From NCBI GenBank assembly GCA_028285005.1, contig JANQQP010000004.1, positions 53,261 to 117,260 on the forward strand: 64,000 nt of DNA, given 5' to 3'. Positions 8,969 through 53,022 of the stretch are shown piece by piece. The DNA comes from Dehalococcoidia bacterium (GTDB lineage Bacteria > Chloroflexota > Dehalococcoidia > Lucifugimonadales > Lucifugimonadaceae). Under the pieces are notes generated by a model, which saw nothing but the letters and a program-made list of their open reading frames with translations, was not told where the DNA came from and ran no database searches. The first letter of the stretch is position 1, and every line of letters starts with the position of its first letter. Position numbers and translations under genes: made by a program.

Positions 8969-9712
8969 TTAATCGGCGCTGTAGGCGAGTTCGATGGCCC
9001 GGTTTTGCTCTCGAGCCAGCTCGTCGATGCCGACTGCTGCGAGTTTCAGCAGGGTGTCCATCTGGGCCGCAGAGTACGGTTCACCCTCCGCAGTTCCCTG
9101 GACCTCCACGAAATCCCCTTCACCGGTCATCACCACGTTCATGTCGACATCAGCTTTGAAATCTTCGTCGTAGGCAAGGTCGAGCATCTCGGTGCCATCG
9201 ACGATGCCCACGCTGACGGCTGCGATGTTGTGCGCTATGGGATTACCTTCAACTCGTCCCTGTTGCTTAAGCCAGTGAATTGCTCCACTCAGAGCGACGT
9301 ATGCGCCCGTTATGGATGCGGTGCGCGTCCCGCCATCAGCGCGGAGCACATCGCAGTCGATCAGGATTGAGTTCTCGCCTAAAGCCTCGAGATTGACCGC
9401 CGCCCTCAACGATCTACCGATGAGTCGCTGTATCTCCTGAGTCCGCCCTCCAAGACGGCCGCCACGGTCGCGCCTAACTCTTTCGTCCGTCGCCCTTGGC
9501 AGCATCGAATATTCGGCCGTCACCCACCCCTTGCCCTGCCCCTTGAGCCAGCGTGGGACGGAGGTTTCCACGGACGCGGTGCAGATCACATGGGTTTGGC
9601 CCGTTTCGATCAGAGCCGACCCTTCGGCGTTCGGCATAAATCCGGGGGTGATCTTCACGTCCCTTAGCTGATCTGGGGCTCGACCGTCCGAGCGGAGTGA
9701 GGTTTCGGGCAA
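8969..9712 (-). CDS. rph: ribonuclease PH
   Basis: RNase PH blocks are present: [29 protein letters not shown] and [19 protein letters not shown]. The TTG start is preceded by AGGGAG 9 nt upstream. Confidence 0.93.
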
Positions 9713-45157: not shown

Positions 45158-46294
45158 GTGGTAGGAGCGATTCCGGCGGCTTTGATATCGAAGTATTCAA
45201 GCTATATCGTCATAGCCGTCGTTGTTGCGTTCGGTGTCTTTCTTGTCTGGCAGATAACGAACTCCAGCCTGTTGACGCGAATACTCAACCGGACAGAGAC
45301 GATCACCGTGACGGGAACCAATGGCTCATCTTCATCCGTGATGAGCCGCGAGTTCGACCTCGTCACGCTTCTTCCATTCGACGCCATACGCTCGATCGAG
45401 GACCCAATTCACCTCGAGCGCGCAAGAGCAGATGAGCTCTACAAGCCTGATGAACTAGTGCTGGGTGTTGAAATCGACGGCGACGCAAGAGCGTATTCGG
45501 TTCCACTGCTGAGCAGGCACGAGGTCGTGAACGATGTTGTCGGAGGTCAACCGGTCGCCGTTACCTGGTGACCGCTCTGCTTTACTGGAATCGGGTATTC
45601 CAGAGAGATCGACGGGCAGATACTCGAGTTCGGAGTGTCCGGCAAGCTGATCAATAACGCACTGGTGATGTACGACCGCGAGACGCGCTCTCTGTGGAGC
45701 CAGTTCCTCTCTTTCAGTGTCCAGGGTGAGTTCGAAGGAACGCCGTTGGAGCCAGTTCCACTGGTTTTGACCACATGGGAGCAGTGGACGGCGCAGCACC
45801 CAGAAACCGTCGCTCTGCGAAAACCAAGCTCCTCGTCCCGTGATCAGTACGAGGGTTACTACCTCAACAACGATGCCGGTGTTATCGGTGAGAAGATCGG
45901 TGACAATCGCCTCGACCGCAAGGAACTTGTACTGGGACTCGGGTTCGACGATGGTCCAAAGGCCTTCCCGCACTCGGAGCTTGAGAAGACTCGAGTTGTG
46001 AACGACGAAGCTGCTGGCCAAAAAACCGTCGTCTACTACCAGACCGAATCCTCGACCGCGCTGGCCTACGGTAGGGAAGTCGATGGCCAGGAGCTGACAT
46101 TCCGGCTTGAGAGCTCAGGTGGCCAGGAGTGGTTGGTCGACCTCGAGACAGGCACGCGCTGGTTGCCTTTCACGGGTCAGGCGGTTGAAGGTCCGCTCTT
46201 GGGTAGTTCACTGCCACGACGGCATGCGGTCAACGTGTTCTGGTTCGCATGGACTGACTTCTATCCGGAGACTGAGCTGTTTGGCGTCTCCTGA
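45158..46294 (+). CDS. DUF3179-family membrane-anchored protein, candidate selenoprotein (in-frame TGA at 45569-45571 read as Sec)
   Basis: Two track ORFs (45158..45571 and 45635..46294) share one frame and are separated by a single TGA. The read-through product is ...HEVVNDVVGGQPVAVTW-U-PLCFTGIGYSREIDGQILEFGVSGKLINNALVMYDRETRSLWSQ..., which is continuous DUF3179-like sequence. The N-terminus has a TM helix (YIVIAVVVAFGVFLVW). Confidence 0.7.
45575..45607 (+). promoter_or_regulatory. candidate bacterial SECIS hairpin downstream of the DUF3179 UGA
   Basis: The mRNA reads UGA-CCG-CUCU-GCUUUA-CUGGAAU-CGGGU-AUUCCAG-AGAG. A perfect 7-bp upper stem and a 4-bp lower stem are separated by a 6-nt 5' bulge. 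The G/U-containing apical loop starts 21 nt after the UGA. Confidence 0.5.
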
Positions 46295-52357: not shown

Positions 52358-52463
52358 GGATTCTCTGCTGAGACGAGAGTTTGGTCGTATCTGTCACCCT
52401 GCCGACCGATAACGTCACGCTACACCCGGGTGGCCTGGCGTTCACTAGCCCTTTCAACCCATG

Positions 52464-52931
52464 TCAGTCCATGCGGCTCTTAATGAACTGGAGTACCTCT
52501 CGCGGGTTCATCCTGCCCAGCTGCGTGGTCGAGTACATCGATGCCATGACGATTCCATCCGGGTTCAGGACGAACTCGGCCGGTTGGACGATCGTTCTTT
52601 CCTGCCTGACGCCCGAGACGGCACCGACCGCTTCGATCTGCTCGGCATCGACCGAGTAGCCAATCGGGAACGTGATCTCGTTGTCCTCCGTCATGATCCT
52701 TGCACCGACTTCGCCGTCAGCGCTTGCCGCGATCACCTCGATCCCCAAGCGTTCGAAGAGAGGAAGGTTGGACTGCACCTCGGCCAACTGCCGGGCACAG
52801 TAGGGTCACCAGTGCCCACGATAGAAGGCGATGTAGGCCCACGATCCGGCCAGGTCGTCTGGCAACGTGATGCTTTCGTCCCTGAAGACTGGAAGCGCTA
52901 TGGATGGGAACGAATCGCCTGGATTGAGCAA
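52464..52931 (-). CDS. peroxiredoxin-like AhpC/TSA (thioredoxin-fold) protein, candidate selenoprotein (in-frame TGA at 52806-52808 read as Sec)
   Basis: The track ORF (52464..52787) covers only the C-terminal two thirds. Extending the frame upstream gives MLNPGDSFPSIALPVFRDESITLPDDLAGSWAYIAFYRGHW-U-PYCARQLAEVQSN.... The TTG start at 52931 is preceded by AGGAAGG 8 nt upstream. FYRGHW(C/U)PxC is the redox motif of this fold. Confidence 0.75.
52773..52800 (-). promoter_or_regulatory. candidate bacterial SECIS hairpin downstream of the peroxiredoxin-like UGA
   Basis: The mRNA reads UGA-CCCUA-CUGUGCC-CGGC-AGUUG-GCCG-A-GGUGCAG. This gives 11 bp (two of them G-U pairs) with one bulged A. The G/U-containing apical loop starts 17 nt after the UGA. 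Confidence 0.5.
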
Positions 52932-53022
52932 GGGTGATGCCTTCCTGAAAGCTGTTTGACAGGCAAATCGTGACACTGACCGACAGCGGTGTCCAGCGAC
53001 GGTGTCGAACGCTATGTATCGA

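Follow-up and report, generated by a model that had tools for sequence, protein, structure and literature searches.

In a 64,000-nucleotide stretch of a Dehalococcoidia bacterium (assembly GCA_028285005.1, contig JANQQP010000004.1, positions 53,261 to 117,260 of the forward strand; hereafter the window, within which all positions are counted), positions 45158-46294 very probably form one gene for a selenocysteine (Sec)-containing member of the DUF3179 family, whose in-frame UGA is decoded as Sec with the help of a bacterial selenocysteine insertion sequence (bSECIS). Our data directly support that this is a single gene, that its UGA and the Cys of homologues constitute a Sec/Cys pair, that the UGA is shared clade-wide and that a covarying hairpin of the SECIS type is confined to the TGA forms. 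The following elements carry the argument:

45158..46294, plus strand: complete gene of the very probable DUF3179 selenoprotein, running over 378 codons, one of them the Sec-UGA, from a GTG start to a TGA stop at 46292-46294
45569..45571, plus strand: presumed Sec-encoding UGA, residue 138, position 1 of the U-P-L-C motif, a Cys column in homologues
45585..45603, plus strand: apical hairpin of the putative bSECIS, with a 7-bp stem (45585-45591 with 45597-45603), the loop CGGGU at 45592-45596 and 20 nt from UGA to loop
45575..45607, plus strand: possible lower stem, CUCU at 45575-45578 with AGAG at 45604-45607

An earlier reading of this DNA, made without database searches (the sequence-only reading), had noticed that the open reading frames (ORFs) at 45158-45571 and 45635-46294 share one frame, that the TGA at 45569-45571 is the sole stop between them and that the codons across it are clean coding sequence; all of this is borne out, the translation running ...GGQPVAVTW-[TGA]-PLCFTGIGYSREIDGQILEFGVSGKL... 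or, in longer context, ...VVNDVVGGQPVAVTW-[TGA]-PLCFTGIGYSREIDGQILEFGVSGKL... Its assignment of the product to DUF3179 proved equally sound: with Cys put in place of the stop, the 378-residue read-through product spans positions 2-292 of the 292 positions of PF11376 (E = 2.9e-82; 276.8 bits, gathering cutoff 27), while no NCBIfam model matches it. Gene callers break the same stretch into products of 137 and 219 amino acids, each of which matches PF11376 on its own.

The suggestion that this might be a new selenoprotein, by contrast, did not hold. DUF3179 (pfam11376), with the motif UxxC/T and one Sec, is a listed prokaryotic selenoprotein family (PMC9312934, 2022; example MBW1804167.1), it has been catalogued again in the same UxxC/T form (PMC13188914, 2026; example MDJ0986319.1), and both sources attribute the family to Zhang & Gladyshev, NAR 2007. 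The name DUF3179 is not used in that 2007 paper, where the matching family may be OS_HP1. The motif of the window protein, U138-P-L-C141, satisfies the catalogued form; it shares with the catalogued proteins the Pfam family, the position of Sec and the presence of one Sec only, so that the window gene is an orthologue with no difference in kind.

Whether the TGA column is a conserved Cys was examined by aligning the window protein (alignment A1) to 21 homologues that are full-length and 40-55% identical, and indeed 19 of the 21 carry Cys there (CPLC), the remaining two showing a Ser (P0107) and a deletion (P0018). The Ser-containing protein, from Candidatus Tectomicrobia, reads TWSPLC, and U, C or S is thus tolerated at this column in the family. 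In the other (P0018; 372 aa, 20 member sequences, 55% identity), about 50 residues are gone, including the segment ...RAY...HEVVND...W-U/C-PLC...; the protein may be a variant that has naturally lost the active-site motif, or else the artefact of a gene model disturbed by a TGA. More distant homologues read VTYCPLT (Gemmatimonadota) or ITHCPLT (one unclassified bacterium). The first Cys is therefore kept nearly family-wide, whereas the second is dispensable (CPLC, CPLT), which fits the catalogued UxxC/T pattern.

The UGA itself is conserved to a striking degree. Scanning a set with a single genome for each GTDB species yielded 58 loci, nearly all from metagenome-assembled genomes (MAGs) of Dehalococcoidia/Chloroflexota and several from closed chromosomes. 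All 53 Chloroflexota loci that reach the site have TGA in the context ...VTW-TGA-PLC..., over a range of protein identity falling from 84% to about 42%; of the other five, three are non-Chloroflexota loci with Cys and two stop short of the site. The nearest relative in this species set is OZ253938.1, with a DUF3179 protein 84% identical to that of the window. In a metagenome scan, of which the best 80 contigs were kept, all 75 contigs covering the site likewise have TGA. Taking genomes and metagenomes together, the TGA-form proteins are 42-88% identical, both flanks of the TGA are conserved as coding sequence, and the stop is TGA in 128 of 128 cases, never TAA or TAG. Many of the best matches in the protein database are fragments of 207-229 residues covering the C-terminal 55-60% of the query, which is the signature of the same gene being split in other assemblies. 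A stop that is only ever TGA, with conserved coding sequence on either side of it in over 120 distinct sequences, cannot be put down to an error, to pseudogene formation or to the border of a gene.

The hairpin CUGGAAU-CGGGU-AUUCCAG, drawn by the sequence-only reading shortly after the UGA, is present at 45585-45603. In an alignment (A2) of 54 sequences, which starts at the TGA and runs for 54 nt without gaps, RNAalifold returned one structure, a 7-bp stem of columns 17-23 with 29-35. Independently of this prediction, pair counting for the same stem showed that about 95.8-97.9% of the stem cells are paired, as against 22-60% in slid controls. Double-sided changes occur in four of the seven stem pairs, namely 18-34 (GC 26 / UA 20), 20-32 (GC 37 / CG 9), 21-31 (CG 31 / AU 14) and 22-30 (AU 38 / GC 10), and the observed covariation score was reached by none of 500 shuffles. 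Pair 18-34 links the third base of a Thr codon (ACU/ACG) to the first base of an Arg codon (AGA/CGA), and because the changes are synonymous on both sides, its covariation can be accounted for solely by selection on the RNA structure and not on the protein. In the loop, all 54 sequences share G at column 25 and U at column 28. The stem arms also constrain the protein (45584-45604, Thr-Gly-Ile-Gly-Tyr-Ser-Arg), whose encoded residues change in concert across the clade, forming the coupled sets TG..YS (GGA/UCC), TG..YA (GGC/GCC) and TA..YG (GCC/GGC); in most Cys-form homologues, the 3'-arm position is occupied by Asp, Glu or Thr.

The bSECIS model comprises a loop of 3-9 nt, an upper stem of 4-16 bp, a G within loop positions 1-2, a distance of 16-37 nt from UGA to loop and a minimum free energy (MFE) of -7.5 kcal/mol or lower (PMC13188914), and the window hairpin agrees with it on every point (CGGGU, 7 bp, 20 nt and -10.4 kcal/mol). 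Judged by single-sequence MFE, 105 of 122 distinct TGA forms pass these criteria, whereas none of seven Cys forms does; the TGA forms that fail have a competing fold, yet retain 5-7 of the 7 stem pairs. The comparison of orthologues carrying TGA with those carrying TGT or TGC, which had been proposed as a check, thus separates the two clearly: the hairpin covaries in the TGA forms and is absent from the Cys forms, where 2-5 of 7 pairs are left and the mean energy of the 21-nt hairpin segment is -2.5 kcal/mol, compared with -9.6 in TGA forms. The same contrast is found within single genomes, in two loci (L060 and L064) where a TGA form whose hairpin is complete (7/7) stands in tandem with a Cys paralogue retaining 4-5 of 7 pairs. 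As to the lower stem CUCU/AGAG, it can be drawn as had been claimed, but covariation does not support it, 87% of its cells being paired with almost no covariation and its outer pair being unpaired in 15 of 48 sequences; we regard it as optional. A different lower stem, pairing columns 13-15 with 37-39, was likewise without double changes and was rejected.

In the mechanism that we propose, the UGA at 45569 would be read as Sec during translation, with the hairpin at 45585-45603, lying inside the coding sequence, serving as the bacterial SECIS and bringing SelB with Sec-tRNA(Sec) to the ribosome, where it would outcompete release factor 2. Both the actual insertion of Sec and its dependence on SelB are our inference. 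The product would be a protein of 378 residues, N-terminally anchored and probably extracytoplasmic, composed of two homologous repeats, each all-beta and about 120 residues long. Compared with the SECIS elements of E. coli fdhF/fdnG, the window hairpin is alike in its location in the coding sequence just past the UGA, in its small loop with G at position 2 followed by G/U, and in its 20-nt spacing, 7-bp upper stem and adequate stability; it differs in having no sequence similarity to them and no Rfam match, and SelB binding is here a prediction.

Indirect support for Sec decoding, independent of the DUF3179 gene of the window, comes from three sides: a second candidate selenoprotein gene in the window, a locus in which selA and selB adjoin a TGA-form DUF3179 gene, and the selenoprotein richness of the class. 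The relevant features are:

Window, 52464-52930, minus strand: AhpC/TSA-Redoxin candidate selenoprotein gene (PF00578, E = 1.1e-19), TGA at 52806-52808
Window, 52461-52937, plus strand: 158-aa ATG ORF, overlapping the preceding AhpC/TSA-like gene nearly in full
L064, 5497-7377, minus strand: selB, 626 aa, with SelB-specific domains
L064, 7478-8836, minus strand: selA, 452 aa
L064, 8916-10004: TGA-form DUF3179 gene, TGA at 9276
L064, 10001-11056: Cys-form DUF3179 paralogue, directly after the TGA form
L060, 227-1761: tandem of a Cys-form DUF3179 gene (P0011; ITWCPLC, no hairpin) and the start of a TGA form at the contig end

The candidate at 52464-52930 has the motif FYRGHW-TGA-PYC (UPYC), that is, a ResA-like W-C-x-x-C with U in first place, and a hairpin at about 52772-52801, beginning 5 nt past the UGA (-18.7 kcal/mol, z = -2.1). 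When it is aligned to AhpC, its U corresponds to Thr/Ser and its second Cys to the peroxidatic Cys. The plus-strand ORF opposite to it is probably a spurious shadow, which a gene caller could favour since the real gene is broken by a TGA. Locus L064 (ENA ERZ25072999 ctg321994, 3,680,599 bp, a Chloroflexota-type chromosome) holds selB and selA next to a divergent TGA-form DUF3179 gene; its 21-kb locus contains no tRNA gene. The TGA-form paralogue of L060 reads VTW-TGA-PLC. With regard to the class, two Dehalococcoidia MAGs (49 and 46 selenoprotein genes) rank within the ten richest bacterial selenoproteomes of BSepDB (PMC13326102). The window as a whole has 58.6% G+C and a housekeeping content (mfd-like, eno, gap, argG, argH, thrB-like, aspartate kinase, apt, SIR2) that is ordinary for a Dehalococcoidia MAG.

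Three further features describe the architecture of the protein:

45203..45250, plus strand: N-terminal hydrophobic segment, residues 16-31, YIVIAVVVAFGVFLVW
45452..45808, plus strand: DUF3179 repeat 1, residues 99-217, carrying U138-P-L-C141
45923..46273, plus strand: DUF3179 repeat 2, residues 256-372, with Q-T-E-S aligned to U-P-L-C

Residues 16-31 look like a probable membrane anchor or uncleaved signal. An AlphaFold2 (AF2) run with the 22-sequence alignment places a helix at residues 7-34, and several homologues in alignment A1 carry lipobox-like N-termini (...LAACS); from the hydrophobic helix and these homologue termini we infer an extracytoplasmic DUF3179 domain. The model is confident (predicted local distance difference test, pLDDT, 90.9; predicted template modelling score, pTM, 0.84) and almost entirely beta. 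The two repeats are 35% identical over 119 aa (E = 9e-18), which shows that a beta module of about 120 residues has been duplicated in tandem within DUF3179. Compared by sequence with solved structures, the protein gave only chance matches to antibody Fab chains, and Foldseek returned no match at E <= 1e-3. Weak local similarity was seen to Rieske ferredoxin/NirD, over about 95-120 residues (E = 8e-3 to 9e-2, target template modelling score 0.43-0.57).

Several results weigh against the selenoprotein reading or against the function that we attach to it, and they should be considered together. Taken by itself, the window sequence folds quite ordinarily (57 nt, -14.7 kcal/mol, z = -0.51), so that the significance of the hairpin derives exclusively from the cross-species comparison and one sequence could not have settled the matter. 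Neither selA, selB, selD nor tRNA-Sec was found in the 64-kb window: ARAGORN and Rfam detected only a tRNA-Pro there, a six-frame scan for motifs of SelD (GxGCGCK), SelA (FSGDKLLGG) and SelB (GHVDHGKT) gave nothing in the window or in loci L001-L059, and a Pfam scan of nine large window ORFs gave housekeeping genes only. This absence is uninformative, because the genome measures about 3.5 Mb and the window covers just 64 kb of it. Among the top 120 matches to the SelA of L064, the Sec machinery could not be linked to this genome or its closest relatives either. The cited literature contains no protein-level or 75Se evidence for DUF3179 selenoproteins. The top 50 Foldseek matches include no thioredoxin fold and the model is an all-beta tandem repeat, on which grounds a thioredoxin-fold CxxC oxidoreductase was rejected as a class for this protein. 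A comparison of 59 gene neighbourhoods (58 fetched loci and the window) revealed no clade-wide partner gene; recF/SMC-like, SIR2 and aminotransferase neighbours recur in 16-22 of the 59 loci, in close relatives only. Finally, the only grounds for a redox role are that Sec pairs with Cys and that the motif follows the UxxC/T pattern.

The failure to observe Sec machinery in this genome might speak for decoding of the UGA as one of the standard amino acids (Trp, Cys, Arg or Gly) in the absence of such machinery, either by local, programmed read-through that the hairpin would stimulate, as downstream structures can do in some systems, or by a lineage-wide change of the code. We consider this very unlikely. 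TGA terminates 11 of the 21 identified genes of the window, confirming its use as an ordinary stop, as the sequence-only reading had stated; the code is hence standard and not reassigned. The UGA position moreover pairs specifically with Cys, the loop G, the spacing and the size of the hairpin match the bSECIS model of the SelB type, and both the selA and selB genes beside the TGA-form orthologue in L064 and the selenoprotein richness of the class speak for Sec.

Just as improbable, in our view, are two separate polypeptides, an N-terminal one of 137 residues and a C-terminal one of 219 residues starting at the GTG at 45635, with the hairpin serving translational coupling or mRNA stability. 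Both ORFs have been called as genes, a GTG start is available at 45635, and some termination at Sec-UGA codons is normal in any case. However, the 21 codons from the TGA to this GTG (PLCFTGIGYSREIDGQILEF) lie within the Pfam domain and rank with the best conserved in the family, the split would fall in the middle of the beta-sheet of repeat 1 in the confident model, the C-terminal piece would be left without a membrane anchor, and a stop that is invariably TGA and never TAA or TAG is not expected of a plain terminator. A sequencing or assembly error for TGC/TGT, or a recent pseudogene, as the error-prone nature of MAG and metagenome sequence and the split public gene calls might suggest, has a negligible chance and is effectively refuted by the cross-species conservation: 53 independent genomes of different species, among them several closed chromosomes, share the identical TGA with 75 metagenome contigs, with coding-conserved flanks and with a covarying structure specific to the TGA form downstream.

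Coming back to the Sec-containing protein, the question of its function is a more delicate one. Sec/Cys pairs as a rule mark catalytic redox cysteines. Sec138, which would stand in for the Cys conserved nearly family-wide (CPLC, CPLT), is most likely a redox-active nucleophile and could be resolved by Cys141; where Cys141 is present, a selenenylsulfide Sec138-Cys141 would be possible. Alternatively, a metal-binding role is conceivable. In placing Sec at the N-terminal Cys of a CxxC-type motif and in being probably extracytoplasmic, DUF3179 resembles the UxxC oxidoreductase-like selenoproteins (DsbA-like, ResA/TlpA-like, Prx-like), a candidate member of which is encoded in the window by the minus-strand gene at 52464-52930, but it differs from them in not having a thioredoxin fold. 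Rieske ferredoxins and Rieske-fold domains without a cluster (NirD, the nitrite reductase small subunit) offer another comparison, their module being about the size of one DUF3179 repeat and showing the weak local structural likeness mentioned above. The second ligand motif of Rieske proteins, C-P-x-H after a beta-strand, resembles U-P-L-C, the positional equivalence of the two being only presumed. They differ from DUF3179 in that there is no similarity at the level of sequence and the ligand set is absent. Membership of the Rieske [2Fe-2S] class was rejected, given that the CxH...CxxH ligands are absent, conservation being limited to U/C138 and C141 and not extending to His121, which varies; the likeness was kept as a lead. 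Following this lead, Sec DUF3179, a form fixed in all the marine Dehalococcoidia genomes examined, might, as a tentative and rather doubtful proposal, belong to a kind of extracytoplasmic selenoenzyme that has so far gone unrecognised. Its scaffold would be a duplicated Rieske/NirD-like beta module, in which the ancestral loop that bound the cluster (C-P-x-H) would have been converted to a redox or metal site of the form U-P-L-C.

Nothing described here is new in kind, and the main gain is the correction of a gene that is split in public annotation. What the analysis adds is that the Sec form is near-fixed across a large marine Dehalococcoidia clade, that its SECIS has formal support from covariation, that Sec and Cys paralogues occur in tandem, that selA and selB adjoin the gene in one genome, that DUF3179 arose by internal duplication and that public annotation still splits the gene. 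With split gene calls, many of the best database matches reduced to C-terminal fragments and no NCBIfam model, this selenoprotein will continue to be missed in Dehalococcoidia MAGs. For the family, the Sec/Cys pair singles out residue 138 as the functional centre of DUF3179, and a Sec form that is fixed throughout a whole marine clade suggests that selenium matters for its activity. Should the tentative proposal of a selenoenzyme on a Rieske/NirD-like module prove true, it would provide the first structural and mechanistic assignment for DUF3179 and would imply a selenium-dependent activity at the cell surface of an abundant ocean lineage.

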